Assembly: GCA_964497635.1 (NCBI GenBank)
Contig: CAZCDB010000004.1
Location: 1 to 43,574, forward strand
Origin: an uncultured Planctomycetia bacterium
Lineage (GTDB): Bacteria > Omnitrophota > Gorgyraeia > 2-02-FULL-51-18
Length of the DNA: 43,574 nt
Direction: 5' to 3'
The position numbers were made by a program, and so were the translations under genes. Below the pieces are notes generated by a model. That model made no database searches. It was not told where the DNA came from and saw only the letters and a program-made list of their open reading frames with translations. This document shows positions 9,299-32,841 of this stretch, in pieces; the first letter of the stretch is position 1, and each line of letters begins with the position of its first letter.

Positions 9299-12200
9299 TT
9301 AAGCCGCGATGTCCAGAGCTCGCATCATGCGCTCAAGACGTAGCGCTTGCTCAAGCGTCACACGTACCAGAGGCACAGCCCAAGCCTGAATCCATCCTTG
9401 GGCGTTTTGGACTTCACCGCTTAAAAACGCGATGATGGCCGGGCGGGCATCTCCGGTATCAACACCCACAGGGAAGAAAGAAACGTGCTGGGCAACAAAT
9501 GCCGCCGAGGGATCCTTGGGATTTTGTAAAGATGCTGTTAGGGTGTGGAAAATATCTCGGGTGTAAATGCTGGTCGCCTCTCCATCTTCGGTGAAGGCTT
9601 TGAACGGCAAGTACCCTTTGCCCTGCACAAGGCTGGAGAGATTTGCGGTGGATGCCATATTAAATTCTTCGGCCACCCGTCCGGTTGTGGGATCTACCAC
9701 CTTCTCATCCATCCCCACGACAACATTTTTTGAAGATAAAATGTTCAAAAACACTTGGACCGTTTTATCCGCAAGCAATTCTCTGCCGATCTCGACGCGA
9801 AAGCGGAAATTGGAAACATCTTTCGCGTTTGAGATCTGAAGAAGCGCAAACAACTGACCCACCAACAACTGCTTCTGGCGCTCCAAAGACTGGACTTGCC
9901 CCACGCGATCAGCAATTCGAATCACACGAAGCGCGTTGGTCTTGAGAACCGCTGTCTCTTCTAAGGTGGCATCAAAGAGCCCAGCAGCTGCCTGGATCTG
10001 AGCCTGGCTTCTTTGGGAAACCTGTGTTAAGGCTTCGGTGTCCTGATCCTTCTCATCCACTGCCTTTTGGTCCCTGTCTGTCGGGGCGTACAAAAGCTCA
10101 GCTCCATCCGTACCACCCACAAACACATTGCCCCTACCATCAGGCCTGGCCGATACGGAAAAGTCTCTCGTCCCCGATGCCAAAGCAATGGCCGCACTTG
10201 GCAACCCGCTTTGCGCAATGGCGGTCAAAACAGCTCCATTACCAGCAAGAGTCAAAAATGGTTGTACAGACACCCTTCCAACAGGGGCTGGTAAAGTAGC
10301 GTTGGCCGCAAATCTAATACCCGTCGGCTTCGTCGATGACTCAAAACGCTTTGCAGCTGATGGAGACGCCAAGCGTGCCGCAGCAATGGCGGCTTGCACA
10401 GTGTCAATGGTGCTCTTTTCAGCAACCCTAAAAGCCTCTGCCCCATCTTTTAAAAGCCTATCTCCAACCGCATCGATTGAAGTGTTGTTGGGACCTAAAA
10501 CCAGCTCGTTCAAATCCAAAAGCACCTGATCCGCGGTAATCGTGTCCTCACTATCCAGCTCACGGCCATCTCGCAGCAGAATCTGGCGCCAGACATCGTG
10601 ATTGTCAGCGGTTTGAATAAGCTTTGGTAGACCCTTGCGGACCAACTGCTTGTCCGCTACATTTTGCAGTTGCTCATCCGACTGAGATTCTACGTAAAGC
10701 GCCGTCGCTTCAAATGCATCTTGGGGAAGCGTGTTGAGATTTCTATCACCCAAAAGAGGCAATACGTAGCTCAAAGGATCGGCGTAGGGCTGTTTATCTT
10801 TCTTGGTGCCGCTTGAAGCGATCAGAAGTCTCTGTGGATTGGCACCTTGCAAACGAAGCGCGCTAAAACGTCCGCGGAGATCCTCGATTTTTTCAAGAGT
10901 CGCCGGATCCAAAAGACCCGGTTGAAGAGCAAGGTTTTCGTTTGAATAAATGGACTGAATCACGCGGTAAGCCAGCTGAGTTTGCGCAATCGCCACTTTG
11001 CCACGAAGCATGCTGATTCTCTCCTTTATTTCTGGCGTGCTAGCATCTCCCTCTGCTTTTAGGATCAGAGGATCCACAGCGATATCCACCCGGCTCACAA
11101 AAAGCGAAAGCACGGAATGAATATTGGCTAGAGGATTGCCATCCACATTTCGATTTTCAAGACCTTGGATATAAGCTTCAATGTTGTCTAGAACATGCTG
11201 GGCCGTAAAAAGCAACGTCACATTGACGCTGATCCCCTCACGAGTTGCAAGCTCAACAGCCTGGACCCCAACCTTACGGTCTGCGTCAACAACATTTCCG
11301 ATCTTAACGTAACCAAATACGCCATTGGCTCTAAAATTCTCATGAATGGTGCGTGCCTCCGCCAAGAGCTCTTGAGGATCCAGGGTATTTGGCGAGGTTT
11401 CATGTGAAGCTCGGCCTTTGTTGACTCTTAAAAGCTGGGCAGCTTGAACAGCCACTTTGGCGTACAAGGCCAAATAAATATCGCGAGCGCTATTGCCAGC
11501 TGCTTTGCCAGTCATCGCCTGTTGATAGATTTCAGATTTTGGATCTGAAATATACTTTTTGATCACCGCATCAATAAGACTTTGATTGGTCGTAATATCT
11601 TGAGCACCCAACTCTTCAATAAAAATTCGGACATAATCCTGCCACGAAAGATTGGGGTCTCTAAGACGCTCCTGAAGAAGCTGGTTTAGCTGCGGGCTGT
11701 TGATCTTAGAGGGTACGCCATCCAGAACAAAGGCATCATGATGAAGGCCGTTGGACTGAAGCCGTGTCAGCCTCAAAACAGAAGTTTTCGGAAGATCTTT
11801 TGCTGGAATAAATATGCGCGGCGTCCAAAAGAAGCCATTCTGGTCAAGCTCTTCAAACGCAGCCTCTGCCGCAGCCTCCGCAAACGAAGCAGAAGACGTT
11901 TTTAATTTAAAACTGATGTAGCTCTGAGGAGTCAATTCCCCATTCTGAGCTTGGGCCAAAAGCTTGGGCTCTAAGATCACATTTTCATAAATAACTTGAG
12001 CATTCGGACTAAGGGCCAAGCGTGCCGCAACAGCTTGAGTTATTTCCTTCTTGATCTGTCTTATTTCTTTGACAGGAACCCCAAGAACCGTCCAGAACTT
12101 TTTGTTCTGTACAGCTTCTTCCAGCTGCTGATAGTTGTGATAAACAATCCCGTCTCGACCTAGATTTGAAAGGATCCACGCCAAAGAAATAATCCGGGCT

Positions 12201-15200
12201 TTTTCTTCGGGGGATTTATCAGGCGCCAGAACTTTATCAATGCTGGATAACTCGTTGATCGTTTGTACATCGGTACCCACTGGATGAAATATTTTGCTGG
12301 CAGTGATAAATAGGGGGTTTTCACCGGGGACATCCAAAAGATAAGAAGCCTGCCTTTGGGCTTTGATGACCGCTTCTATATTTTCGAATTTTTTTCCTTC
12401 CCACTGGGAGGTTAACTGCTTAACAATAATCACTCTTAAGGACTCCTTGGGATCTGATTGAGTGACTGCATTTAAGATATCCACAAAAGGAACTTTGTAA
12501 GCATCCAACCATGTACCGCGACCAGAAAAAGATCCTGTGGCTCCCTTGATATTCTTAGCAAAAAGCTGGAAGCGGCGAGCAATCGTGCCTGGATTTCCAC
12601 CACTTAGCATGAACATCAGACGTTTGCCAACAAGGTCATTAAATATTTTAAGCCACTTTATTTGGAGTTTTTCATCCGCAATGTCGCTTCCGGGAAAATG
12701 CTCTTTATCGATATCGGCATCAATGCCAAGTCTGCGAATCGCTTGGATCATCTTGAGCGTGTTGTTGTAAGCCCATTCACGACCCTCAAAGGTTTCGAGG
12801 TATTTTTGACCATTAAGGGTTGGAACAGCATTGACAGCATCAAGATTGATTTCAGTGGATCCATCTGCCGCATAGCGACGGGTCTTAGCATGAAGCACTT
12901 CAGGGGTGACAAGAAAACCATTTTGATGGCCGATTTTAACGATATCTTTAACCGTTGTAAAAACAGGCTCAAGCCTCTCATCTGGCACAGAAGAATCCAA
13001 GTACACCATGATCTTGAGAGCTTTTATCTGCTGGATATGAGAAATGGCTTTTAAGAAATCATCCAGAGTTTTAAAACCAAGATCCTCGTGAAGAGTGCGA
13101 GGAGCGTTCCCAATCTCACGACCGGCCTCAGGCGCGCCATCCTTTAGGGCACCGTTGGGGGTTTTGCCGGATTCTAACTGAATAAAAAATTGGGAATCAG
13201 CGAACACAGGAAGATCTGGGTGAAGAATGATTGGCCCATACTCAGCCTCGGTAATCGCTCCCGCTTTTTGAGCGGCAATAATATCTGGGTGGCTGAGCGA
13301 AAGAAAAACATTATTTTTCACATAACCCATCATATTCTTCGGACTCACAAGAATCGCATGGTTATAGTCGGATATACCAGTAAACAAGCTGAGCTGGAGC
13401 TGCGGCTCGGTCAAACCAGAGCTTTTAAGCATCTCCCCTAGAAAATAAACAGCTCCCTGGTCGCCAGGGGTTACATTGCGATGACCCTCGGGCATCAAGC
13501 TCACGAGAGCTTTCCGCCGACCCTCACCAATCTGCTTCCACCAATCGGCGCCCTCGACATAAGGCCCATCGATGTGATCAAAAGGCTGACGTGCGAGACG
13601 AGCCGCAACAGTCGGAGCATAACTGCTTCTGGAAATATTCATACCGCGGCTATTCACAACAAGCGTTGAGACGTTGAGGCTGCCATTCAGCGATTCAACA
13701 CCGTTATCCGGAACAACTTGACCTTGTTCCGTTTTAAAAGTATTGGAAGAAGGAATGATGAAAGTCTGATAAAAATCAGCCGGAGGGACACTTTCAAGTG
13801 TAAATATTTTTTCTCCACTTTGAATGGCCTGGATATCCGCTTCACTGAAATAAGGTTGCTGGGTGGTCGGGTTGATGCGTGAACGAAGGGCTTCTAGATC
13901 TTCCGCTGAAAAAGCGAGTCGGTTATCCATATCTGTACTTGTCCGAGTGGACGAAGTTTTGACATAAACACCACTGCCCGCGGCTGTCTCCTTAACACCA
14001 TAGAAGCCTTGGTCTGAAACAATCTGTGCCACGCCTTTTGCGCCGCTCGAGGCTAGATTTCCTGCCGCTTGAAATGCGCTCATCGTCTCGGTGGCACCAG
14101 CAATTTGGCCGTAAACATGGCGGTCGTCAATAGCCGCGATCAACTGCGGAGTAATGGACCCTGATCCATACGTCGGCACCTTGACTCCCAAAGCGATCAG
14201 CTTTTTATACAACCGCTGATGCCGATGAGGTTTGGATCCATCCACAAGCTCTTTGCCCATGAGCTCAAAAGTGATCTCACTTAGAGGGATATTCGTTGCC
14301 GCAGAATGTGCTTTGAGCCAATCAATAACAGCATCTTCAAGAGAAAGCTTCCCGTCTCTTCCTACCTCAGCGGCATTGCGAGCAACTTTTGAAAAATCAA
14401 AAGTAACCGACCCTTTATAGACCAAAGCAAATGTTCGCAAAGTATCCGGAATAGGGATTATTTCTTTTGCGACCAAAATAACAGAGGTACCACGCCCTTC
14501 ATTTTTTGCAGGGTTTGTGGGATCAAAATTGGCCGTATTATTGGTGCCATCCAGCCCATCATTGCTGATCATGTAGGTAGCCGTGGACTTGCCGCTCACA
14601 GGCTCAAACCTTTCACCCTGTTCAATATAATAAGATCTTGGGTCTCCAACAAAATCAGCAACATCTTTCAACCCTTCAGAGTTGACCGCTACAAACGTGA
14701 CCTGAAACTGATCCGCGAGTCTTTGAAGACCTTCACGATGAATCCGTACCGCCAGCAAATCAAGAGTGTTTTTATCACCCTTTCCAATAAGACCGGACAA
14801 GTGAATCGCCAAGGCTGTTTCTTCTGTGATCTGACGCAGAGAAAATGGGATAAGATCCGCTGACTTAGGCGTTAGATTTGTAGCCAGACTATATTCGCTT
14901 GAACCAAGAGCAGGTGTTACCATCTGTCGCGCTCTTGCAATAATTTCATCAAAATCACTGGTCGTCCCAGGCTTGATAGCCGCAGGAACCACCGATCTAT
15001 TCCCTGGGGTCACCTGCAATGTTGGTGATGGCTCCCTTCCATCAATGAATGGGCTGGTATAATCGTTGGATCTCAGCGGAGATAACGTTCTAGGCAAACC
15101 GCTTGGAGCATTTTCTGGAGCAAAACGCTCTGGATCTTGCTCTGGATCTTCATCCGCCAACCTCGCCGCTGCAACTGATTTATCTACCAATCCCGCGACA

Positions 15201-16867
15201 GCCAACGAAAGTTTTGGGTTTCCGGCTTCCTCTACAAATCTTTGGGGAATCCGGTATGCTCCCGAAAACGTTCTCTGCCCGTCTATTCCGGCAATCAGGG
15301 CTTTTCCGTTAACCGTTCGCACGGTTTTGATGGGGCGCTTCAGAGGAGATAAAAGCACTTTCTCATATTTGGCCTGGTTGGTTTCAGAATTGACGTTGGG
15401 TGTGACCACGACATACGAATACCCTTTTTCTTTCAAAAGTTTTGCCAAGTGACGCGTATGATAACCGCCGGCGATGAGGGCGGCCATTTTAGAGCTCATC
15501 CCTTTTTCCAAATTTTTGATAAAAGCAAAATCTCTTTGATCCACCGCGCGATAAAATTTTTCGAGGGCAATACGACCTTCCTCAAGGTGTTTCTCAAGAG
15601 GGATCAAGCTATCGGTCAGGCCCTCTTCCAAAAGCGAGCGATTTAAAAAAGCTTGCCATGAAACGGTAGGAAAATCAGGAGTGTTCTCAAGAAAAGCAGT
15701 GAACTCATCCGACGTCATCTGAATGCGATAGGCTGTCTCTAAAAGACTCAAATATTGGTCAACCGCACGAAGCGTATGTGCAGCCTCATGAGTGAGAAGA
15801 CGCCCATAAACCACCTGCTCAAGTTTCTGGGACTGCTCAAGTAACTTCTCCATATCAAGCTTCGAAAACTTTTCCAAATAGGCCATGTAGCTCTGAAGCT
15901 TGGGTGTCGATGAAAGCGCGATATTCCGCTCTTTTGCCTGGGTAACGATTTTTTTAAGATACGCAAGCTGACCCACTCCCTTTTGCTTGGGCCCCATGGA
16001 CAATTCACGGGCAACATTTCCCGCGTCTGCAGCGCCAATCTTCTCCACTAGCGAAGCAAGCTCCAACTGCGCGAGGCTAAAATCAATCTTTTTTTCTTCG
16101 GTCAAAAGGACCGAAAGCCCGACAACTTCTTTAAACTGAGAAAAGCCCACGCCTTGTTTTTGCGCCACATCGACAAGTTTTTCGGGGGAGACGGTTCTGT
16201 TGGCCGACTTTTCATAAGATAACAAGGTGTATGGGTAGTGTCTTTTTTTAAGTTTTTCAACCGCCGTACGGGAGCTAGACAAATAATCAAGAATTTTTTC
16301 CCGCTGGTTGGCCAACTCAGCGTAGGCCTTTAAACCCTCCATGTACAAATCAAGATCCTCAACCCCTATCAACTTCATCGGCTGGGAAGACGTCAGATTG
16401 AGATATTCTTCCCCGGAAATTTCGGCATCACGTAAGTAACGGCCTGCGATACGTTTCATGGAAGAAGCGCTCATCAGCTCACGCAGAGGCCCCAAAGTCA
16501 CATCCCCACTTCCACCCTCGACAAAAACATCGGAGAACTGGTATCGATTCATCAGTTCTTCAAGAGTCTTGGCAAGATTCTCTTGTCCCGAAAGATTGGC
16601 ATGCGCATCCTGGATCAAAATCACAAGGGGTGCCGGGCTTCCGTTTTTTAGCGGGGCCTGGTAGCTTTCTTTATATTGACTGTACTGTGTCGGGACTTGA
16701 AAAGAAGACACATCGACAAAAGAAGAGGCTTTTGAAGACACCACGGGATTGGAAATTCCTGCGAGAGTGGCGGCCTGAGCTAAGTCAGAGACTGAAAAAG
16801 TAACGAGGAGTGCGAAGCTTAAAGACTTCACGATGGAGGAGGGACAAGACTTGTTTGATAGTTTCAT
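9299..16867 (-). CDS. Giant multidomain exported/membrane-associated protein 'B': N-terminal domain, then GlpX-like, LacD-aldolase-like and transaldolase-like modules, then a C-terminal domain
   Basis: Supplied ORF 9299..16879 (2526 aa). The track start at 16879 is a TTG. The ATG at 16865-16867 (MKLSNKS...) has GGAG 6 nt upstream, so I prefer it. The N-terminus ...SLSFALLVTFSVSDLAQA|A is signal-like. Confidence 0.9.
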   Translation of the reverse strand: MKLSNKSCPSSIVKSLSFALLVTFSVSDLAQAATLAGISNPVVSSKASSFVDVSSFQVPTQYSQYKESYQAPLKNGSPAPLVILIQDAHANLSGQENLAKTLEELMNRYQFSDVFVEGGSGDVTLGPLRELMSASSMKRIAGRYLRDAEISGEEYLNLTSSQPMKLIGVEDLDLYMEGLKAYAELANQREKILDYLSSSRTAVEKLKKRHYPYTLLSYEKSANRTVSPEKLVDVAQKQGVGFSQFKEVVGLSVLLTEEKKIDFSLAQLELASLVEKIGAADAGNVARELSMGPKQKGVGQLAYLKKIVTQAKERNIALSSTPKLQSYMAYLEKFSKLDMEKLLEQSQKLEQVVYGRLLTHEAAHTLRAVDQYLSLLETAYRIQMTSDEFTAFLENTPDFPTVSWQAFLNRSLLEEGLTDSLIPLEKHLEEGRIALEKFYRAVDQRDFAFIKNLEKGMSSKMAALIAGGYHTRHLAKLLKEKGYSYVVVTPNVNSETNQAKYEKVLLSPLKRPIKTVRTVNGKALIAGIDGQRTFSGAYRIPQRFVEEAGNPKLSLAVAGLVDKSVAAARLADEDPEQDPERFAPENAPSGLPRTLSPLRSNDYTSPFIDGREPSPTLQVTPGNRSVVPAAIKPGTTSDFDEIIARARQMVTPALGSSEYSLATNLTPKSADLIPFSLRQITEETALAIHLSGLIGKGDKNTLDLLAVRIHREGLQRLADQFQVTFVAVNSEGLKDVADFVGDPRSYYIEQGERFEPVSGKSTATYMISNDGLDGTNNTANFDPTNPAKNEGRGTSVILVAKEIIPIPDTLRTFALVYKGSVTFDFSKVARNAAEVGRDGKLSLEDAVIDWLKAHSAATNIPLSEITFELMGKELVDGSKPHRHQRLYKKLIALGVKVPTYGSGSITPQLIAAIDDRHVYGQIAGATETMSAFQAAGNLASSGAKGVAQIVSDQGFYGVKETAAGSGVYVKTSSTRTSTDMDNRLAFSAEDLEALRSRINPTTQQPYFSEADIQAIQSGEKIFTLESVPPADFYQTFIIPSSNTFKTEQGQVVPDNGVESLNGSLNVSTLVVNSRGMNISRSSYAPTVAARLARQPFDHIDGPYVEGADWWKQIGEGRRKALVSLMPEGHRNVTPGDQGAVYFLGEMLKSSGLTEPQLQLSLFTGISDYNHAILVSPKNMMGYVKNNVFLSLSHPDIIAAQKAGAITEAEYGPIILHPDLPVFADSQFFIQLESGKTPNGALKDGAPEAGREIGNAPRTLHEDLGFKTLDDFLKAISHIQQIKALKIMVYLDSSVPDERLEPVFTTVKDIVKIGHQNGFLVTPEVLHAKTRRYAADGSTEINLDAVNAVPTLNGQKYLETFEGREWAYNNTLKMIQAIRRLGIDADIDKEHFPGSDIADEKLQIKWLKIFNDLVGKRLMFMLSGGNPGTIARRFQLFAKNIKGATGSFSGRGTWLDAYKVPFVDILNAVTQSDPKESLRVIIVKQLTSQWEGKKFENIEAVIKAQRQASYLLDVPGENPLFITASKIFHPVGTDVQTINELSSIDKVLAPDKSPEEKARIISLAWILSNLGRDGIVYHNYQQLEEAVQNKKFWTVLGVPVKEIRQIKKEITQAVAARLALSPNAQVIYENVILEPKLLAQAQNGELTPQSYISFKLKTSSASFAEAAAEAAFEELDQNGFFWTPRIFIPAKDLPKTSVLRLTRLQSNGLHHDAFVLDGVPSKINSPQLNQLLQERLRDPNLSWQDYVRIFIEELGAQDITTNQSLIDAVIKKYISDPKSEIYQQAMTGKAAGNSARDIYLALYAKVAVQAAQLLRVNKGRASHETSPNTLDPQELLAEARTIHENFRANGVFGYVKIGNVVDADRKVGVQAVELATREGISVNVTLLFTAQHVLDNIEAYIQGLENRNVDGNPLANIHSVLSLFVSRVDIAVDPLILKAEGDASTPEIKERISMLRGKVAIAQTQLAYRVIQSIYSNENLALQPGLLDPATLEKIEDLRGRFSALRLQGANPQRLLIASSGTKKDKQPYADPLSYVLPLLGDRNLNTLPQDAFEATALYVESQSDEQLQNVADKQLVRKGLPKLIQTADNHDVWRQILLRDGRELDSEDTITADQVLLDLNELVLGPNNTSIDAVGDRLLKDGAEAFRVAEKSTIDTVQAAIAAARLASPSAAKRFESSTKPTGIRFAANATLPAPVGRVSVQPFLTLAGNGAVLTAIAQSGLPSAAIALASGTRDFSVSARPDGRGNVFVGGTDGAELLYAPTDRDQKAVDEKDQDTEALTQVSQRSQAQIQAAAGLFDATLEETAVLKTNALRVIRIADRVGQVQSLERQKQLLVGQLFALLQISNAKDVSNFRFRVEIGRELLADKTVQVFLNILSSKNVVVGMDEKVVDPTTGRVAEEFNMASTANLSSLVQGKGYLPFKAFTEDGEATSIYTRDIFHTLTASLQNPKDPSAAFVAQHVSFFPVGVDTGDARPAIIAFLSGEVQNAQGWIQAWAVPLVRVTLEQALRLERMMRALDIAA
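10367..10381 (-). other. [AG]ARL[AS] boundary motif, copy B4 (AARLA)
   Basis: gcg gca cgc ttg gcg (residues 2167-2171). Context AAIAAARLASPS, directly after the transaldolase-like module. Confidence 0.8.
10400..11512 (-). other. Type-2 (long) transaldolase-like module inside ORF B
   Basis: GRASHETSP, GYVKIG (Schiff-base Lys context), EGISVNVTLLFTAQ, HSVLSLFVSRVD, RGKVAIAQTQLAY, GANPQRLLIASSGTK, PYADPLSYV and NLNTLP appear in the same order as in actinobacterial-type transaldolases (recalled from memory). Confidence 0.8.
12014..12028 (-). other. [AG]ARL[AS] boundary motif, copy B3 (AARLA)
   Basis: gcg gca cgc ttg gcc (residues 1618-1622). Context TQAVAARLALSP. Confidence 0.8.
12320..13072 (-). 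other. Class I (LacD/tagatose-bisphosphate-type) aldolase-like TIM-barrel module inside ORF B
   Basis: By-eye match to LacD segments. ALKIMVYLD matches AVKFLLYYD. GFLVTPEVL matches PFFLEVLTY. IDADIDKEHFP matches VDVLKVEVP (Lys). LMFMLSGGNPGTIARRFQLFAKNIKGATGSFSGRGTW matches [37 protein letters not shown]. Confidence 0.55.
13592..13606 (-). other. [AG]ARL[AS] boundary motif, copy B2 (AARLA)
   Basis: gcg gct cgt ctc gca (residues 1092-1096). Context APTVAARLARQP, directly after the GlpX-like module. Confidence 0.8.
13616..14830 (-). other. Class II fructose/sedoheptulose-bisphosphatase (GlpX)-like module inside ORF B, with insertions
   Basis: TEETALAIHLSGLIGKGDKNTLDLLAV matches GlpX ESAALAGYKWLGRGDKNTADGAAV. 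ISNDGLDGT matches AVDPIEGT. KPHRHQRLYKKLIALGVKV matches KPRHDAVIAEMQQLGVRV. YGQIAGATET matches YGIGGAPEG. STLVVNSRGMNISR matches TETLLIRGKSRTIRR. Confidence 0.65.
15155..15169 (-). other. [AG]ARL[AS] boundary motif, copy B1 (AARLA)
   Basis: gcg gcg agg ttg gcg (residues 571-575). Context KSVAAARLADED, at the end of the N-terminal domain. Confidence 0.8.
15272..16708 (-). repeat. Paralogous N-terminal domain, copy in ORF B (partner 7661..9097)
   Basis: See the partner entry. The order is the same and there are very few indels. Confidence 0.9.
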
Positions 16868-16960
16868 TAGAATCTCCAATTTAATGCAGGTTTACAATGA
16901 AAGATAGTGGAATTGTACATGAGGCTTCCTCACAAAACAAGAGCAGAAAAGTTAAAAATT

Positions 16961-24183: not shown

Positions 24184-24924
24184 TCAGGTCTTTACATTTA
24201 ACAATCGTTTAATTCGGCCGCTGTCGCAATAACCACTCAGGCGATCTTCCTCTAAAAATCGCTTATTCATCAGCGAAATAGCCGCCTGACTTAAAATTTT
24301 TGTTCCTTCGAGCTCCCTGGCAATCTCCATCAAGGATAAGGGGGTGTGGGTTTTAAGATAATGAACCAGAAATTTTTTTTGCCGGGCCGGATCCGCTGTC
24401 ATGCGGCCGATTTGCTGCTTAATAAAAGAAATATCGGACGGCTTTTGAAGTCGTCTTAGATTGGAAATCGAGGGATCCTTTTTCCTAGGTAAAAATTTCT
24501 CTTTCATCTCTTCAATAAACGTATCCGACCCCAAAAGGCAGCCGCCCTGACACGCCCGACTGGGATCCCAGGGTCTAGAATACCCCTCCAAGGTAAATTG
24601 ATGAAACAATGTTAAATCTTTAAACTGAGAAAGAATAAAACTTGTGTCCATAAAAGCGAAGGTCTTGCGCTTTTTATAAAACTGCCCATAACTAGACCAT
24701 GGGTAGCTTTCCGGTGACTTGGCAAGACCGGCTTTGACAGGATTTACATGGATGTAGCGGGACAGCTCGAGGGAATAGCTGTCGTGGTCAACCAATATCG
24801 CCTTGTAGCGTCCCTGAAAAAGCGGCCCCACTCGCTTGCGTCGGCGGTTGAAGGTCTGCGTGTAAAGCCCATTAAGCTCACGCATGATCTTCGAGAGATT
24901 TGGCTTTGGAGTTTGTAAATACAA
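24184..24924 (-). pseudogene. 5'-truncated REP-associated/IS200-like Y1 transposase (RayT-type) with DnaA-C-like HTH tail
   Basis: Begins at ..YLQTPKPNLSKIMRELNGLYTQTFNRRRKRVGPLFQGRYKA...YIHVNPVKAGL..YPWSSY. The HUH-containing N-terminal half is missing, and an in-frame TAA lies 18 nt upstream. Confidence 0.7.
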
Positions 24925-24942
24925 ATTGACCCTCCCCCTGAA

Positions 24943-25149
24943 TTAAACCACCCGTAAGTAGAGTCCCGGGTTTTGTTGTTGGTATTTTTTCATGAATTCT
25001 TCAGGGGTTAGGTTGTCCAAAGAATCATGAGGTCTTAACGTATTGTACTCGATCCGCCAGTTTTCAATAACCTCCTTTGCTTCGTTTAAATCCAGGAAGT
25101 AGTTCTCATTCAAGCAGCCATCCCTGAATTTGCCGTTGAAAGACCTCAC
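24943..25149 (-). mobile_element. IS3-family transposase (OrfB) C-terminal fragment, ~68 codons only
   Basis: SFNGKFRDGCLNENYFLDLNEAKEVIENWRIEYNTLRPHDSLDNLTPEEF is the extreme C-terminus of DDE IS3 integrases. No catalytic core lies upstream. Confidence 0.75.
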
Positions 25150-25217: not shown

Positions 25218-27767
25218 CTAAAATACTTCGATCAGACGCCTGGCCTCGTCCATTCTTGATAAAGAAACGGGCAATGTATCCCCAATGCTCACATTAGATT
25301 GAGCTTTGTTTGTCCCTTCCGCTGATGACGAAACAAGAATTGCCTGAATAGAATTTTCATATTCCAATATAAATTGCCCCTGCCTATTTTGCCCGACAAC
25401 CTTCATGCTATAAGGTTGGCCATATTTAAAAAACTGGTGATTTGGAAATTTTTTTTCGAAGAACAACTTCCTGGATAAAACTACTCGCCTACGAGTTGCA
25501 TCCAAGTCTTTTATGACAAAACCATATCTACCATCAAGCGCCAGCAGGTCGCCTACCTTGGTCACAAAGAACAAATTCGTTAATTCACCTTTTGGAATCA
25601 CACACTCAAATTCGGCTGGCTTGCCATCTAATTTGATAATTGCCCCCCAATTTTCTACTTTGGATACATTGCCCGTAACAAACTCCCCAATCTTAAAATG
25701 TTCTTGAAACATCACCAAGGGGTTCGGCAGGGTGCGTTTTCTACTTGCCCATATCATGCTTCGGCTTGAATCCAGGTGTAACAAGCGCACACGGACTTCG
25801 CTGCCAGGTGGAGTCAAGCGCCGAAGATCGGGGACATAATTCCAATCTGCTTCTGATATCAAAACAACCCCAGAAATATTATCCTCAAATACTAAATTAA
25901 ACGCTCCCCGATTCACATTCGATACTTTGCCAACCACCTCGGCATTTTTATGTTTTTCATAAAACTGCTCCACAGGATTAGGAAGCGCTTCCTTTCGACT
26001 TAAAAAGATAGATTGGTTTTCTAAATCAATTTTTATAATTTTGACTTTAACCACCTGATCGATTTCAAATTTTAAATTATCAATTACCCCTTCCATCCAA
26101 TCCAAATTATTCTTAAAAATCACGCCCTCAACCCCCACCTCCAACTCACAATAAAGTCTTCTTTCTTGAATTCCGCAAACCCTTACGTCAACGATATCGC
26201 CCACGGTATATTTTGTTGCCACCAATTGCCATGGCTCAGGTCTATTTTTTATTACCATCTTTAAACTTTTATAGCGCGGGTCGAATCCAACGGAGCTCAC
26301 TTGAATATTTTGTCCAATAGAATATTGCGCTTTTAGATCCCTCGAGCGACTGTAACTGGCGTTACCGTATGATACAAAGCCCTTCATGCCATCATCTAAT
26401 CGCATGACCAGACCTGAATCAATAATCGATTCAATATGTGCAGAAATTGATGCATCCGAAGAATACTTTTTTTCGATTCTGTCAATCGGGTCAGTTTCAG
26501 TTCCCACATTTGAAAGGATGATATTTGACACATCCTGGCAGTCTAGAACCCGCAATCTCAACTCATCTTCATTATGAAAATACAGCTCGGGCTTTGGCAT
26601 AGTTGATTTACTTAGCTGATTAACTGGAATTTTAACGGTCATCCCACCTACGTCCACTTCAACGCCTGCGCTATTCACCCTCGTAATAAGTGCTTCGACT
26701 TGCTCGCCCTTATCCTTGGCCTGTTGAAGCGATTCCTTGGTTTCGTTCAGTAATCCCTCATAGTCCAATTTAAATAACGCAACTACGACAGGAATGTCTT
26801 TGGAGTAGTTCTTTTTGAAGAGAATTTCGTGGTAATTCTTATTTACATGCAACGCTTTCCTGATATCTTCCAATAACTCGGATTGCCAATCCCCACGTGC
26901 AAAAAAATAAAAAGTTTCAATTCCGTTTAAAGTTAAATATTTTATTCTTTGTAGATACGCAGTCATTCCAAACTCCTGGAATGTTTCACGCTTTGAAACA
27001 AGAATTATCCCGAGCTTGATATGTTTTTCAGCAAACTTTAGTTGGCTTTTTTCGTCTTTGCGTCTTACGGACAAACTATGCATAAACTTAAAAAATTTCT
27101 CGGATTCTTGCACGTGAACTTCGGTTGTCAGATTAGGGAAGATTGCTTGCCCAAAATCTTTATATTCTTTAAGCAGCACTGTCCCGAGATATCCAGCTTC
27201 GTCAATTTCATTTACCTGAAGGTAAAGCGTTCTCAACCCTTCTTTTGCATCTAAAGCTGGCTTAAGATAACTATCATCAAAATATCGAATACCTTCCTTT
27301 TCATTGTTTTTAAGTAGGGCCTGTCGAATAACGCTTAAATCTATTGCTTGGGAAATATTAGGACGCAGATACGGCTTAACTTCTCGGAGCAGTGCAAAAT
27401 TAACGTAACTAACGGTTGCCTTGACCAAGTTTTCTGTATTGTCCCTCGAAAACTTCATCCGAATTATTGGGGTCTTGTTGTCCAATAACGCCTTGATATT
27501 GTCTTCATCAGCAACTTCAACTTTTACACCAGGCAGTATCAGATCCTTGTAATCCTTGTTGATGAATTTTGTAAAAAGATTTAGACTGCCCTCAATTTTA
27601 TTTTTAACACTTGATTTTCTGAAATATTTTCCGCAACCGCCCAATAAGCCACATAAATCGCCCCAAATCTTTTTAATAGTGTCGTAATACTTGAAGCATG
27701 CCCAGATAGAAAGCGCCCAGACAGGGATAATAGTTAGGGTTAATCCATAACCCTTAAAAATAAACAT
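25218..27767 (-). CDS. Membrane-anchored protein: N-terminal TM helix, ~330-aa unassigned domain, then six tandem S1/OB-like repeats
   Basis: 849 aa. TM segment LTLTIIPVWALSIWACF. The repeats (residues ~354-849, nt 25221..26708) each have the shape G-x-V-x-G-x-V...G-x-x-V...G-x-x-G-x-I/V...V-x-V-x-I...R-x-x-LS-R-K. Examples are VGDIVDVRVCGIQERRLYCELEVGVEGVIFKNNL...VVKVKIIKIDLENQSIFLSRKE and IGEFVTGNVSKVENWGAIIKLDG. The gene is visibly more AT-rich than its neighbours. Confidence 0.75.
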   Translation of the reverse strand: MFIFKGYGLTLTIIPVWALSIWACFKYYDTIKKIWGDLCGLLGGCGKYFRKSSVKNKIEGSLNLFTKFINKDYKDLILPGVKVEVADEDNIKALLDNKTPIIRMKFSRDNTENLVKATVSYVNFALLREVKPYLRPNISQAIDLSVIRQALLKNNEKEGIRYFDDSYLKPALDAKEGLRTLYLQVNEIDEAGYLGTVLLKEYKDFGQAIFPNLTTEVHVQESEKFFKFMHSLSVRRKDEKSQLKFAEKHIKLGIILVSKRETFQEFGMTAYLQRIKYLTLNGIETFYFFARGDWQSELLEDIRKALHVNKNYHEILFKKNYSKDIPVVVALFKLDYEGLLNETKESLQQAKDKGEQVEALITRVNSAGVEVDVGGMTVKIPVNQLSKSTMPKPELYFHNEDELRLRVLDCQDVSNIILSNVGTETDPIDRIEKKYSSDASISAHIESIIDSGLVMRLDDGMKGFVSYGNASYSRSRDLKAQYSIGQNIQVSSVGFDPRYKSLKMVIKNRPEPWQLVATKYTVGDIVDVRVCGIQERRLYCELEVGVEGVIFKNNLDWMEGVIDNLKFEIDQVVKVKIIKIDLENQSIFLSRKEALPNPVEQFYEKHKNAEVVGKVSNVNRGAFNLVFEDNISGVVLISEADWNYVPDLRRLTPPGSEVRVRLLHLDSSRSMIWASRKRTLPNPLVMFQEHFKIGEFVTGNVSKVENWGAIIKLDGKPAEFECVIPKGELTNLFFVTKVGDLLALDGRYGFVIKDLDATRRRVVLSRKLFFEKKFPNHQFFKYGQPYSMKVVGQNRQGQFILEYENSIQAILVSSSAEGTNKAQSNVSIGDTLPVSLSRMDEARRLIEVF

Positions 27768-28009
27768 TAGACTGATCCTTCGGAGAACTTCTCATGACAA
27801 ATGGGATCGCTACAAACAAATTTATAACTTTTATCTTGCGCGGAGAAAATCGCCAGCAGATTGGAATCGTCGAGTATAGAAGAACAATAGACGCACTTAA
27901 GATCCCTTCCTAAAAACCGATCATAGACATCGATAGCTATTAGCGCCTTCTTCAGATCTTCGTCAAGCAGGGCCCCAATTATTCGTTTATCCATTCTTTC
28001 TCCACCCAT
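27767..28009 (-). CDS. Small Cys-rich (Zn-ribbon-like) protein coupled to the S1-repeat gene
   Basis: 80 aa (75 aa from the ATG at 27994). CVYC...CSDPICH. Its TAA shares one base with the ATG of the 849-aa gene (TAATG). Confidence 0.55.
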   Translation of the reverse strand: MGGERMDKRIIGALLDEDLKKALIAIDVYDRFLGRDLKCVYCSSILDDSNLLAIFSAQDKSYKFVCSDPICHEKFSEGSV

Positions 28010-28099: not shown

Positions 28100-28837
28100 T
28101 CATCTTACCCCCCAGATTTTGTGCATCTGAGGGATCACGCGCACATCAAAAAGCTCTTTTTTAGCTTCAGCGAAAAATTGGTTTTCGATGAGTTTGAGTG
28201 AAGTAGTATTAATTCCAAAGGGGTCGCTCAAGGGTTGAAAAATAAAAGGGAGCTTGGCGTTTACGTTTTTGACCAGACGGATGCATTCCTTAATTTCGCC
28301 CAAAGCGGTCGTGGGAGTCACCACAATTTTGACAAACACTTCTTTTTCAATCGCGATTCTTAAAAATTCTTCGTGCTCGCGCGTAAAGTCACGATCCCCT
28401 GTGCTCGACGACGGCTTCAGATCCATCGCGATGATGTCGCACCAGCGGATCACCTCTTTAAGCTGTCCTGGCAAAGTACCGTTGCTTTCAAGATAAGTCG
28501 TGATCCCCCTCTCCTTCAGTCTCGGCAGAAGATTGCAAAGAAAAGGGGTATAAAAAAAAGGTTCTCCCCCGGTCAGAGACACCGAGTGATGAGCGCCCTT
28601 TTCTTTTTCAAAATTGTCAACCTCCGCCAGCACCTGATCCAGCGAATACACCGAAAAGTTTTCAGCCTTCATTTTTTCCAGCTCATCGCAATACCCGCAG
28701 TGCATATTGCAACGCCCAAAGCGGACAAAAATCTGCTTCACTCCCAAGTACGGCCCTTCCCCCTGAATCGAGGAAAAAATCTCGGAAATCTCGGTCTCTG
28801 TCGCCCGATCCATAATTTTATTTTTCATAACTGGCAC
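28100..28837 (-). CDS. queE: 7-carboxy-7-deazaguanine synthase (radical SAM)
   Basis: SSIQGEGPYLGVKQIFVRFGRCNMHCGYCD (CxxxCxxC). The track start is a GTG, and an ATG lies at 28828. Confidence 0.85.
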   Translation of the reverse strand: MPVMKNKIMDRATETEISEIFSSIQGEGPYLGVKQIFVRFGRCNMHCGYCDELEKMKAENFSVYSLDQVLAEVDNFEKEKGAHHSVSLTGGEPFFYTPFLCNLLPRLKERGITTYLESNGTLPGQLKEVIRWCDIIAMDLKPSSSTGDRDFTREHEEFLRIAIEKEVFVKIVVTPTTALGEIKECIRLVKNVNAKLPFIFQPLSDPFGINTTSLKLIENQFFAEAKKELFDVRVIPQMHKIWGVR

Positions 28838-29192
28838 ACGCGTCCGGCGTCTCCCAAACGGTTACTTTTGAAATTCGGGCACTGGTCGACTTGACTCGAA
28901 GTCTTAGCTCCTCATAAATCAAGCGGGCAATATTTTCCGTGGAAGAGTTGACCCCCGTATTTTTAAATCGCGGATGTTCATTGAGCGAAGTCAGATGAAG
29001 AGTCGACAACACCTCTCGTAGAGCCGGTTTTACCATTTCAAAATCCATTACCACCCCCATCGAGTCCAGCGCCTGAGCCTCGGCTTTGACCGCGACTTTC
29101 CAGTTGTGTCCGTGACGATGCTCCCAGCTGCCATCATAAAGCTTCAAAGCGTGGGCCGCAGAAAACTCATCCTCGATCACTATTTCATACAT
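28818..29192 (-). CDS. queD: 6-carboxy-5,6,7,8-tetrahydropterin synthase
   Basis: 124 aa. FSAAHAL...HGHNWKV, the PTPS-family His triad pattern. Confidence 0.85.
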   Translation of the reverse strand: MYEIVIEDEFSAAHALKLYDGSWEHRHGHNWKVAVKAEAQALDSMGVVMDFEMVKPALREVLSTLHLTSLNEHPRFKNTGVNSSTENIARLIYEELRLRVKSTSARISKVTVWETPDACASYEK

Positions 29193-30049: not shown

Positions 30050-30798
30050 GATTGGACAAATCCTTTTGTTTTTTCGTACTGTTGTCTGTATTCCAAAATT
30101 CCGTTGGCAATCGCCTCGGCCAGCCGGCGCCGGTAATGAGGGCTTCTTAGCTTATTTTCATCCTGATGATTGGTCCCATAGCCCATCTCAATCAAGACTG
30201 CCGGACACTCTGTGTTTTTTAAAACATAAAAATTGGCGGACTTGATCCTCTGCCCTTCCACCAGAACTGAGCGACCCACGCGATCGCTGATCCAGCGAGC
30301 CAGAAGTGCGGATTCCGCACGATTCTTGGCTTCTTTGAGAAGCCAGAGAATTGTTTTTAGGTTGTTGTCCACAAACCTTTCAGGAACCCCGTGAAGTTCT
30401 TGGGGTGGGCCTTGCGTGCGCCCCGAAGTCTCCGAAAGAGTGTACACTTCAAATCCCTTCAGCTCTTGACTTGGAGAGGCATTGGCATGAATACTGACAA
30501 AAAGATCCGCCTTTTTTTTGTTGGCAATTTTTGAGCGATTGGGCAAAGGAATAAAAACATCCGTATCCCGCGTCATCACCACTCGAAGCCCCTTACTAAG
30601 AAGCTCTTTTTGGACTCGGGTGGCCACGTCCAAAGTCAGCTCTTTTTCAAGAAGACCGGAGGGATAGATTGCCCCTGAGTCTTTCCCACCATGACCGGCA
30701 TCAATGACAATCTGTCGGATCGCCAAAGAAGGTGGTGGCGCCTGCACCGGCATCGGCCGGCTTCCCAGCCAGAAACTTGTCAAAAGAATAAGCAGCAT
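30046..30798 (-). CDS. N-acetylmuramoyl-L-alanine amidase (Amidase_3)
   Basis: IVIDAGHGGKDSGA, FVSIHANA and LIEMGY. ATGA overlap with murI. Confidence 0.85.
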   Translation of the reverse strand: MLLILLTSFWLGSRPMPVQAPPPSLAIRQIVIDAGHGGKDSGAIYPSGLLEKELTLDVATRVQKELLSKGLRVVMTRDTDVFIPLPNRSKIANKKKADLFVSIHANASPSQELKGFEVYTLSETSGRTQGPPQELHGVPERFVDNNLKTILWLLKEAKNRAESALLARWISDRVGRSVLVEGQRIKSANFYVLKNTECPAVLIEMGYGTNHQDENKLRSPHYRRRLAEAIANGILEYRQQYEKTKGFVQS

Positions 30799-30852
30799 TG
30801 TGTTTTCCTATTTACTTTCTCCGTATTTTGCCCTAAGAAATCAGGGTTGTCA

Positions 30853-30860
30853 TGTATAAT
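30853..30860 (+). promoter_or_regulatory. Extended -10 element (TGTATAAT) upstream of the helicase gene; possible leaderless start at ATG 30868
   Basis: TGTATAAT ends 7 nt before the ATG at 30868-30870. There is no convincing -35 element or RBS. Confidence 0.3.
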
Positions 30861-32841
30861 GTTGCCCATGCGTTACGACCCTTTTCAACAACAAGCCATG
30901 GCCGCCATCGACGCCGAAAAATCGGTGCTCGTTTCCGCGCCCACAGGCTCGGGCAAGACCGTCATCGCCGAGTACGCCATCGACAAAGCGCTTTCCCGGA
31001 ACGAACGCGTCATCTACACCGCCCCCATCAAAGCCCTCTCCAATCAAAAATACCGCGACTTTTCTTTGCGCTACTCCGACCAAGTGGGCCTTTTGACCGG
31101 CGACGTTTCCTTAAACCCCGACGCCCCCATTGTCATCATGACCACTGAGATTTATCGCAATCAGCTTTTTGAAAACGCAGCACGCCTTAAAAACACTTCT
31201 TGGGTCATCTTTGATGAAGTGCATTATCTGGACGACCCTGAACGGGGCACGGTCTGGGAGGAAGCGATTATGTTCACACCAGAATCAGTACGCCTTGTCG
31301 CACTCTCAGCCACTGCTCCCAACATTGAAGAGTTGGCCGCATGGATTCGAAGTATTCTCAACCACGAGATCGCGGTGATTATCGAGACACACCGCCCCGT
31401 CCCCCTGGTCAACTTTTTCCAATGTCAGGGAGCTATTTTTGCGGATACCCACTCACTCAAGAAACACGGCTACCTGGACCGGGAAACTTGGCCCTCCGAC
31501 TTTGGACGCGGAAATCGTTTTGATCATCGCAAACGCTTCCAGCGGGGCTCTTACCACAAGCTTTTGCGCGCCAAACCCAGCCGAGCAGATGATCTCACCC
31601 GCCATCTCGAATATAAAAAGCAGCTCCCCTGCCTTTATTTTGGCTTTGGCCGAAAACGCGTGGAAGAGCTGGCCTGGGACCACGAGAAATTTGATTTTTT
31701 AAATCCCTCCGAGAAAATAGAAATTGAAAAACGTTTTGATGAGCTCTGTGTCAAATTTGACCTGACTCAAGAGTCCAGCGCCATCGATATGAAGCGCCTG
31801 ATTCTACGCGGCGTTGCCTTTCATCACGCCGGCCTTCTGCCCACACTCAAAGAAGTGGTCGAGCAGCTCTTTACCTCCAAACTCATCAAGCTTATTTTTA
31901 CGACGGAGACTTTTGCCATCGGGATCAACATGCCTGCCAAAACAGTCGTGTTTGATGAAATGAAAAAGTTTTACGGCACGCATTTTGGATTTTTAAGAAC
32001 ACGGGATTATTTCCAGATGGCGGGTCGAGCCGGGCGCCGCGGCATGGACGCGGAAGGTTATGTTTATTGCCGAGTCAACCCTCATCAGATCCCCCTCTCT
32101 TCCCTGTTAAAAATTGTTTACGGCAAGCCCGAGCCCATTGAAAGCCAGCTCAACTCCTGCTACGCGACTCTTTTAAACCTCTACGCCGAGTTTGGTTCAA
32201 AGCTGATGGAGATCTACCCGCGCTCGTTTCATTATTTTCAGTCCAATCGCAAAGACCGCCTCAAAGGCGCCGCGCTGATCGAAAGAAAGCTTGCCCTCCT
32301 AAAAGAACTAGGCCACTTGGGGGATGAAAAGTTAACAGCCAAGGGAGAATTTGCCTCTTGGATGTACGGGTATGAACTGCTTCTATCGGAAATGCTGGAG
32401 GATGGCTCTCTGGAAACTTTGGATGAGGTCAAGCTATCGGTTCTTTTATGCGCGCTTGTTTTTGAGCCCCGCAAAAATCAGGAACCCAAAAAACTTCCGC
32501 CCCATCTGGAGGTCGTGGAAAAGCGAGCGTTTAAAAGCCTTCGTGTGGTTCACGCCAAAGAAATCGCGCAAAAAGTCTATCCGCAGACCAAGCTCCCCTA
32601 TTTTAATCTATCCAAAGCGCTGGAAGCCTGGATGGCCGGATGCAAGTTTCAAGACCTTCTGGAGCTAACGGATGTGGATGAGGGGGAAATCATCCGCTAT
32701 TTTCGGATGGTGATCCAGCTTCTGCGCCAGCTAAAACAAGCGCCTCAAGTCAGCGATCGTCTTCGGCAAGTCGCCAAAACCGCGCAAGCCAAAATCAACC
32801 GAGACCTCGTCGACGCCGAAAAACAACTCAGAAATATGTAA
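30859..32841 (+). CDS. Ski2/HelY-like superfamily-2 DEAD/DEAH-box helicase
   Basis: SAPTGSGKT, IFDEVHYLDD, LSAT, FHHAGL and QMAGRAGRRG. The track start at 30691 would overlap the divergent amidase gene by >100 nt, so the start is more likely ATG 30859 or 30868. Confidence 0.85.
   Translation: MLPMRYDPFQQQAMAAIDAEKSVLVSAPTGSGKTVIAEYAIDKALSRNERVIYTAPIKALSNQKYRDFSLRYSDQVGLLTGDVSLNPDAPIVIMTTEIYRNQLFENAARLKNTSWVIFDEVHYLDDPERGTVWEEAIMFTPESVRLVALSATAPNIEELAAWIRSILNHEIAVIIETHRPVPLVNFFQCQGAIFADTHSLKKHGYLDRETWPSDFGRGNRFDHRKRFQRGSYHKLLRAKPSRADDLTRHLEYKKQLPCLYFGFGRKRVEELAWDHEKFDFLNPSEKIEIEKRFDELCVKFDLTQESSAIDMKRLILRGVAFHHAGLLPTLKEVVEQLFTSKLIKLIFTTETFAIGINMPAKTVVFDEMKKFYGTHFGFLRTRDYFQMAGRAGRRGMDAEGYVYCRVNPHQIPLSSLLKIVYGKPEPIESQLNSCYATLLNLYAEFGSKLMEIYPRSFHYFQSNRKDRLKGAALIERKLALLKELGHLGDEKLTAKGEFASWMYGYELLLSEMLEDGSLETLDEVKLSVLLCALVFEPRKNQEPKKLPPHLEVVEKRAFKSLRVVHAKEIAQKVYPQTKLPYFNLSKALEAWMAGCKFQDLLELTDVDEGEIIRYFRMVIQLLRQLKQAPQVSDRLRQVAKTAQAKINRDLVDAEKQLRNM

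Follow-up and report, generated by a model that had tools for sequence, protein, structure and literature searches.

A two-gene cassette pairing a membrane-anchored, S1-tailed protein with a small zinc-ribbon partner: a candidate mobile conflict system

What is the function of a protein that joins six S1-like units, the number found in ribosomal protein S1 (RpsA or bS1), to a membrane anchor? Such a protein is encoded in a 43,574-nt stretch of DNA from an uncultured Planctomycetia bacterium (contig CAZCDB010000004.1), hereafter the window, and the genome was studied within these 43.6 kb. The large gene and a small upstream gene for a zinc-ribbon protein form a compact cassette, 2.8 kb in all. 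The evidence presented below takes us about halfway to reading this pair as a mobile conflict cassette directed against phages or mobile elements, a defence by abortive infection or exclusion, in which a membrane-tethered protein would capture single-stranded RNA (ssRNA). Its parts are given here, with structural elements taken from AlphaFold2 (AF2) models and S1 units scored singly against the Pfam S1 model (PF00575), for which the gathering cut-off is 22 bits.

27767..28009, minus strand: small zinc-ribbon partner gene, 80 amino acids from its first ATG and 75 from the ATG at 27994.
25218..27767, minus strand: large gene, 849 amino acids, with a membrane anchor, an N-terminal module (N-module) and six S1/OB barrels.
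26709..27767, minus strand: N-module, residues 1-353, with the anchor, a long helix, a sheet (82-104), a six-helix bundle (110-233), a likely Alba-like sub-domain (~244-334) and a linker helix (336-353).
27690..27758, minus strand: predicted transmembrane (TM) helix, residues 4-26, from hydropathy and the AF2 helix.
27645-27686, minus strand: amphipathic helix after the TM helix, residues 28-41, from the AF2 model.
26766..27038, minus strand: likely Alba-like β-α-β-α-β-β sub-domain, residues ~244-334, from Foldseek and a profile search.
26508..26708, minus strand: S1/OB unit 1, residues 354-420; Pfam S1 37.2 bits; AF2 barrel 356-419; aligns to E. coli bS1 domain 2.
26247..26453, minus strand: S1/OB unit 2, residues 439-507; Pfam S1 12.8 bits, sub-threshold; AF2 barrel 441-506; colinear with bS1 domain 3.
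25992..26201, minus strand: S1/OB unit 3, residues 523-592; Pfam S1 39.6 bits; AF2 barrel 525-590; aligns to bS1 domain 4.
25737..25946, minus strand: S1/OB unit 4, residues 608-677; Pfam S1 27.2 bits; AF2 barrel 610-675; aligns to bS1 domain 5.
25470..25688, minus strand: S1/OB unit 5, residues 694-766; Pfam S1 29.3 bits; AF2 barrel 696-765; its start aligns to bS1 domain 6.
25221..25421, minus strand: OB unit 6, residues 783-849; divergent, no Pfam match; AF2 five-stranded barrel 785-848.

The six units had been proposed by eye in the original prediction, and the count holds. The whole large protein matches Pfam S1 at 1.9e-37, and units 1, 3, 4 and 5 are certified individually by the hidden Markov model (HMM). 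A full-length AF2 model, computed from an alignment of 44 full-length family members (predicted local distance difference test, pLDDT, 87.3), displays six five-stranded barrels with strand order β1-β2-β3-helix-β4-β5 and short helices between them. Assignment of units 2 and 6 is based on this model together with colinearity to bS1 and conservation among relatives; unit 6 is colinear and conserved in the 44 long-form relatives.

Does a six-unit array make this protein an RpsA? Against PDB sequences of E. coli bS1, residues 345-713 of the query are colinear with bS1 residues 96-470 (E 6.7e-28). In bS1 this segment begins in domain 2, continues through domain 5 and reaches into the start of domain 6. 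The array has no counterpart of domain 1, the ribosome-docking domain, in whose place residues 1-353 supply the TM anchor and an unrelated module, and the sixth barrel is extra relative to the bS1 alignment. With domain 1 missing and a sixth barrel added, the common count of six is not orthology. The NCBIfam rpsA equivalogs agree, since all 11 models score far under their cut-offs (205.3 versus 577 bits for TIGR00717; 194.8 versus 524 for NF004952), and true bS1 proteins are ~25% identical to the query over ~40% of its length. The link to RpsA drawn in the original prediction is not supported. Even so, because the linkers between barrels keep bS1-like 'P-x-P-W/V/L' motifs (PEPW, PNPV and PNPL), the array probably descended from a bS1-type gene. 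No rpsA gene was found within the 43.6-kb window.

The identity of the remaining part of the large protein is the more consequential question. The original prediction had found no motif to name in the N-terminal ~330 residues, and none is matched in Pfam (2025), NCBIfam 20, PADLOC 2.0.0 or PHROGs 4. An exhaustive phmmer search of the N-module against 1.84 billion cluster representatives, however, reveals a large family of which this module is the core, with 822 representatives at E<=1e-3, 489 at E<=1e-10 and 38 at E<=1e-30. This family had been overlooked in the original prediction, as had the likely Alba-like sub-domain and the presence of relatives in defence islands, a prophage and an element that resembles integrative and conjugative elements (ICEs). 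A word-indexed protein search missed the whole family, its candidates being crowded out by S1 proteins or having too few words in common: S1 proteins swamped the full-length query, a profile query returned 1 protein and the N-module query returned 0. Orphan status deduced from word-indexed searching alone would have misled.

Lengths of the best 149 family members fall into classes that likely correspond to the window protein's architecture (800-900 amino acids, n=43), the module alone (300-400, n=74), intermediate forms (400-800, n=27) and fragments (<300, n=5). The long forms (n=44) are colinear over all 849 residues at 19-39% identity and have E201, R235, L243, G267, Y271, Y287 and P427 as invariant positions, and family-wide E201, R235, G267, Y271 and Y287 are near-invariant. 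Sixty-three members were scanned with Pfam, and their C-terminal tails differ: S1 domains are found in 23, NusA-like KH_5 in 11 and C2H2 zinc fingers in 1, while most of the remainder have no detected tail domain. The tails are swapped between members and would be interchangeable ssRNA binders. This observation bears directly on the proposal that the protein is an S1 mimic or decoy, which cannot be the family function because in some members the N-module carries KH domains or zinc fingers in place of an S1 tail, and in others it is tailless.

The fold of the N-module was modelled with AF2 from an alignment of 75 stand-alone members (pLDDT 92.5; predicted template-modelling score 0.88). Along the chain the model runs from a first helix (residues 4-26) through an amphipathic helix (28-41), a long helix (47-70), a three-stranded sheet (82-104) and a six-helix bundle (110-233) to a β-α-β-α-β-β unit (251-334) and the linker helix. 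The structure prediction called for by the original prediction thus gives six barrels in the full-length protein; for the N-module a whole-domain PDB match was not found by Foldseek (0 at E<=1e-3), and the likeness of its C-terminal sub-domain to Alba is marginal. For that sub-domain the top Foldseek matches in the PDB are Alba, Sso10b and Rpp20/25 chains, with probability ~1.0 but E values of 0.02-0.4 over 85-100 aligned columns. A family sequence profile searched against PDB chains also ranks Alba structures first (1nfh, 2z7c and 7dl8; E 0.05-0.11, profile positions 269-341), and an Alba-like sub-domain is the likely interpretation of both searches. In BFVD there is one full-length match, a 346-residue protein of an uncultured siphovirus (TM-score 0.81, E 8.6e-22), which is a member of the family. 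Foldseek matches to GNAT and methyltransferase structures were dismissed for low probability and a root-mean-square deviation >10 Å. A PHROG match annotated 'antiholin / lysis inhibition' was dismissed as well, as it covers 17 residues (215-231) and all PHROG matches are at noise level (E>0.02).

The membrane anchor, another element of the original prediction, is upheld by its conservation. Residues 6-25 form a 20-residue uncharged stretch (hydropathy KD19 = 1.62), and an N-terminal segment with KD19 >= 1.6 is present in 134 of 150 family members, for which the median is 2.33. Judging by phmmer match coordinates, most members without such a segment look N-terminally truncated. Net charge changes from -0.4 over the 15 residues that precede the helix to +3.2 over the 30 that follow, and because the positive charge sits after the TM helix, the positive-inside rule would place the bulk of the protein in the cytoplasm, a topology that is conserved along with the anchor. 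The order of TM and amphipathic helices is reminiscent of TatA; the TatA profile match (E 2.1) is not significant.

Is the small gene an incidental neighbour or part of the system? The TAA stop of the partner gene and the ATG of the large gene have base 27767 in common (TAATG), with AAGGA ~10 nt upstream of the large-gene ATG. The true start of the partner is more likely its second ATG, at 27994, because GGAG sits 8 nt ahead of it; the resulting length of 75 residues is also that of an independent gene call on the source contig. In this numbering the partner has four invariant cysteines, C34, C37, C61 and C66, arranged as CxxC ... Cx(2-4)C. Its homologues are 20-37% identical and have a common N-terminal '(D/E)(D/E)L..LL' helix; no Pfam, PADLOC or PDB match to the partner was found. 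Upstream sequence was available for 16 loci (window/L001, L004, L006, L008, L009, L012, L013, L015, L016, L017, L018, L019, L020, L022, L023 and L024), and all 16 have a homologous zinc-ribbon open reading frame (ORF) of 70-99 residues immediately upstream of the N-module gene, the partner stop and the N-module start overlapping or abutting in most of them. The pairing is independent of the tail, for it is seen with S1 tails (P0121, P0122, P0123, P0125, P0130 and P0132), with a KH tail (P0197) and with none (P0148, P0269 and UF08_11 of Marinitoga camini virus 1, MCV1). Because the partner adjoins the N-module gene in every locus, whatever the tail, the functional unit is the gene pair. The co-translation suggested in the original prediction from the one-base overlap gains from this conserved layout, which supports coupled expression. 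The large protein was found, identical, on 7 assembled contigs. A promoter and terminator scan of the cassette gave no excess over the shuffled expectation.

Several observations indicate that the cassette moves. Across 25-28 kb, where the cassette lies, the guanine-plus-cytosine (GC) content is 0.39-0.41, as against 0.43-0.50 on the flanks. Directly downstream, outside the cassette itself, two ORFs (24184..25149) are decayed insertion sequence (IS) remnants that mark an acquired region:

24943-25149, minus strand: rve_3 integrase-core fragment, 68 amino acids (Pfam rve_3, 2.4e-18).
24184-24924, minus strand: 246-residue ORF, weakly similar at its N-terminus to the C-terminal end of IS200-like Y1 transposases (Y1_Tnp, E 0.01).

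A search for repeats bounding the island gave only short imperfect matches, as chance predicts. Neighbouring genes were scanned at 14 related loci, a small sample that allows a qualitative statement of enrichment, without a matched background control. Four of these loci (L004, L006, L009 and L019) have PADLOC-recognised defence systems within <=7 kb, and in two of the four (L004 and L019) the cassette is sandwiched between restriction-modification (R-M) genes and an operon of the cyclic-oligonucleotide-based anti-phage signalling system (CBASS). The settings were as follows, with MTase for methyltransferase, REase for restriction endonuclease and BREX for bacteriophage exclusion:

L004 (P0121, 39% identical overall): on one side of the cassette, RadC, Type II MTase (3.9e-73), REase (1.3e-33) and Vsr; on the other, CBASS genes for a 1TM effector (8e-77) and for a cyclase (8e-169).
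L019 (41% identity with the window protein): on one side of the cassette, an REase (9.5e-104) and MTase unlike those of L004; on the other, a CBASS cyclase that also differs (2e-129), with a 2TM effector (1e-81) and a phospholipase D-type nuclease.
L006: an 851-residue PglX-like methylase upstream.
L009/L010: PglZ and BrxL (BREX genes) within 6 kb, and IS genes.
L017 (ICE-like): serine recombinase on one side; C-5 methylase, MobC, relaxase and TraG on the other.
L015 (MCV1, KP836355.1, 4234-5456): UF08_10/UF08_11, between replication genes and terminase.
L008: adjoins a ParE pair.
L016: DUF433/DUF5615 pair close by.
L018: among metabolic genes.
L020 and L022-L024: no PADLOC matches among the neighbours tested.

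Comparison of L004:987-8931 with L019:609-10470 reveals closely related cassettes flanked by differing Type II R-M pairs and CBASS operons, and suggests a variable defence hotspot of which the cassette may be the constant element. The C-5 DNA methylase of L017 was detected by Pfam only. In MCV1, a temperate siphovirus of Thermotogota, the system has its stand-alone form, a 70-residue zinc ribbon and a 336-residue N-module whose genes overlap at ATGA, and both are annotated as hypothetical. Among sequenced phages the cassette is present in 1 of 50,697 records; it was not found in a plasmid collection or an E. coli collection, and pattern scans of IMG/VR found nothing. A scan of 185,579 species-representative genomes with peptide patterns of the window protein, which finds close relatives only, returned one S1-only locus and no close relative. 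Mobile-element and some defence-island presence is thus directly observed, and the cassette behaves, as far as these gene neighbourhoods indicate, as a piece of mobile cargo for which defence hotspots are a frequent destination.

How might such a pair work? Given interchangeable S1, KH and zinc-finger tails and an Alba-like core, the ligand would be single-stranded nucleic acid, most likely RNA; since the anchor is conserved, binding would occur at the inner face of the membrane; and a conflict function is suggested by the small coupled partner together with the cassette's mobility and its neighbours in defence islands. From these features we infer RNA binding, a complex of the two proteins, a defence role and an effector step. 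In the resulting model the TM and amphipathic helices would fix the large protein to the inner membrane on its cytoplasmic side, and the Alba-like core and the multivalent S1 tail would capture ssRNA, for example phage transcripts or genomes, with single-stranded DNA (ssDNA) as a possible ligand. Capture would then switch on an effector function of the N-module: either the membrane would be perturbed as the anchors cluster on an RNA template, or the conserved core (E201, R235, Y271 and Y287) would have an activity not yet recognised. The zinc-ribbon protein could be an inhibitor, a co-sensor or a co-factor. These data are compatible with the sensor or trap for RNA or ssDNA, tethered to the membrane, that was put forward in the original prediction, and the present model comes near to it.

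A number of findings weigh against the conflict model. The original prediction had proposed searching residues 30-353 for nuclease, kinase or pore-like folds, and neither these nor any other effector fold was recognised in the N-module by Foldseek against the PDB and BFVD. PADLOC-DB v2.0.0, whose catalogue extends to 2023, has zero families for either protein at E<=1. Five of the 14 loci (L018, L020 and L022-L024) have no defence genes among the neighbours tested, and the flanks of the window contain no recognisable defence system, only generic radical-SAM and superfamily 2 (SF2) helicase similarities. The TM hydropathy of the window protein is borderline (1.62) and at the low end for the family, and on inspection of the sequence several of its S1 units do not have the classical aromatic and histidine surface residues. 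Function, finally, is predicted from sequence and models.

Which other explanations would account for the same locus? One is that the pair is an addiction module of the toxin-antitoxin (TA) kind, in which the large membrane protein is a toxin acting by RNA sequestration or membrane damage, the zinc-ribbon protein is the antitoxin, and the module stabilises islands, prophages and ICEs, with no necessary action on phage. The bicistronic layout of 16/16 loci, where a small gene comes first and runs into the start of the large one, is what such a module would look like, as are the prophage, ICE-like and IS-remnant settings and the proximity of other TA pairs (ParE in L008, DUF433/DUF5615 in L016). 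We nevertheless consider it fairly unlikely, as none of the DNA-binding folds of classical type II antitoxins was recognised in the partner and an 849-residue multidomain protein with swappable RNA-binding tails resembles a sensor-effector more than a minimal toxin; the two readings also overlap, many TA modules being defence systems. Could the protein instead have no conflict role and serve as a physiological regulator or scaffold that tethers host mRNAs or small RNAs to the membrane, in the manner of RtmR, RNase Y or RNase E? The anchor combined with S1, KH and Alba-type RNA-binding domains would suit this role, membrane-embedded RNA-binding proteins do exist in bacteria (for example RtmR; PMC12265689), some loci (for example L018) lie among ordinary metabolic genes, and the want of an effector fold would be no obstacle. 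What makes it an unlikely account is the patchy, mobile distribution of the family (prophage, ICE-like element, defence islands and an atypical-GC island beside IS remnants): the closest relatives, L004 and L019, have the cassette in common but not the flanks, and no close relative appeared in the peptide-pattern scan of species-representative genomes, limited as that scan is to close relatives. An obligate small partner and swapped tails are, moreover, typical of conflict systems and not of housekeeping regulators.

A superinfection-exclusion factor of a prophage or other element, physically trapping incoming phage or plasmid nucleic acid at the inner membrane without suicide, is a further candidate. 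It would make good use of an anchored, cytoplasmic, multivalent array for single strands, and the MCV1 copy occupies a typical accessory ('moron') position between replication and packaging modules; a copy in an uncultured siphovirus and another as cargo of an ICE-like element point the same way. However, most copies are chromosomal, with 1 phage record in 50,697, the double-stranded DNA that most phages inject is a poor ligand for S1 or KH domains, and the conserved zinc-ribbon partner goes unexplained, and for these reasons we regard exclusion by trapping as distinctly improbable. The last explanation, that this is the organism's own RpsA, or else a paralogue that has diverged but still functions on the ribosome, draws on the six S1-like units, on the colinear alignment to bS1 96-470 and on the label 'small subunit ribosomal protein S1' that some source databases attach to family members (others use 'hypothetical' or 'NusA-like'). 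It is rejected here on the basis of the equivalog scores (205 versus 577 bits for TIGR00717), the replacement of domain 1 by an anchor and a 330-residue unrelated module, and the mobile context. Identity to bS1 is low and partial, the same N-module carries KH tails or none in relatives and is paired with a zinc-ribbon gene, and a TM helix in 134/150 relatives, atypical GC and IS remnants do not befit a soluble, vertically inherited core gene, such that an RpsA identity retains almost no probability.

Beyond the cassette, the window has several features that are recorded here for completeness. About 90 nt upstream of the small ORF and on the same strand (28100-29192, minus) lie a QueE-like radical SAM gene and a QueD/PTPS gene of the 7-deazaguanine pathway, and co-transcription with the cassette is possible from this arrangement; QueE has weak generic matches to prokaryotic viperin models (1.7e-9). 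A 716-residue Ski2-like helicase (30691-32841, plus; DEAD, ResIII and DSHCT domains) matches PADLOC Hachiman HamB models at 2.4e-35, with no HamA-like partner seen, and this match probably reflects generic SF2 similarity of a HelY-type helicase. One ORF of 2,526 residues occupies 9299-16879 (minus). At the right end (42354-43574, minus), a 5S rRNA is accompanied by ~970 nt from the 3' end of a bacterial 23S rRNA, and together they confirm a bacterial chromosomal origin of the window.

If the cassette is a defence or addiction system, the prokaryotic immune repertoire would gain a family comprising no fewer than 800 sequence clusters, whose core domain had not been modelled before, and with it a sensing mode that is rare among described systems, multivalent ssRNA binding at the membrane. 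If it is not defensive, the family would still constitute a large class of bacterial RNA-binding proteins that are tethered to the membrane and have an obligate zinc-ribbon partner, a class that current databases leave unannotated or mislabel as 'ribosomal protein S1' or 'NusA-like'. Either case can be tested directly, given high-confidence models, invariant E201, R235, Y271 and Y287, the four cysteines of the partner and the 2.8-kb size.

How does the cassette compare with known systems? Its array resembles bS1 in having tandem, colinear S1/OB barrels joined by short helical linkers with 'P-x-P-W/V/L' motifs, whereas bS1 has domain 1, which contacts the ribosome and S2, and has neither the anchor and 330-residue module nor a zinc-ribbon partner. 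The N-module finds its only consistent PDB likeness, by structure and by sequence profile, in Alba, Sso10b and Rpp20-Rpp25, a marginal likeness (Foldseek E 0.02-0.4, HMM E 0.05-0.11, identity 10-17%). The classical Alba proteins, from archaea or eukaryotes, are small and soluble; here the sub-domain is embedded in a larger membrane-anchored module, and nucleic acid binding is predicted only. The placement of an ssRNA-binding domain at the cytoplasmic membrane face is seen also in RNase Y (TM, KH and HD), RNase E (amphipathic anchor and S1) and RtmR (TM and RRM), and the alternation of S1 and KH in the N-module family mirrors the RNA-binding appendages of ribonucleases. RtmR of Vibrio fischeri is a membrane-embedded RNA-binding protein that binds many transcripts and regulates biofilm formation (PMC12265689). 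The N-module nonetheless has no sequence or fold relation to these three proteins and no HD, RNase E catalytic or RRM domain, and they are chromosomal housekeeping or regulatory factors without a zinc-ribbon partner, in contrast to the mobile N-module family.

The recruitment of S1 arrays by conflict proteins is supported, by analogy, by P0002 (L025:5001-8873), a 1,290-residue protein that combines GmrSD_N and GmrSD_C with six Pfam S1 stretches and a final Hfq domain, which is the best S1-array match to the window array (150 bits) and looks like an uncharacterised RNA-binding restriction-type protein. Like the window protein, it carries a six-S1 array on a conflict-type protein; it differs in having a GmrSD Type IV restriction effector and in that no TM anchor was noted and there is neither N-module nor zinc-ribbon partner, and its array follows the nuclease domains, in the C-terminal half, with Hfq ending the protein. 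Its neighbours are a second GmrSD_N gene (L025:3262-4935), IS1595 and a Polbeta/HepT-like pair. In the full-text literature no description of the cassette was found, nor any counterpart of the S1/KH/Alba sensor or the N-module fold in described systems; judged against PADLOC 2.0.0 and the literature searched, three parts would accordingly be new, namely the N-module, its zinc-ribbon partner and the employment of an S1 array. We propose only tentatively, and with less assurance than the conflict role itself, that the cassette represents an undescribed class of RNA-sensing membrane immune or conflict system, with a new-fold core, swappable ssRNA-binding arms that would detect foreign RNA, and an obligate zinc-ribbon partner with which it would trigger an effector activity of an unfamiliar kind, unrelated to CRISPR, CBASS, retrons or known abortive-infection (Abi) systems. 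In organisation it resembles the CBASS TM effectors, Kiwa and other abortive-infection pairs, from which it differs in having no cyclase or second-messenger component: it is likewise a compact operon encoding an N-terminal TM protein with a modular, sensor-like domain, and the likeness extends to its setting, with several relatives beside R-M, CBASS and BREX genes, in a prophage and on an ICE-like element.

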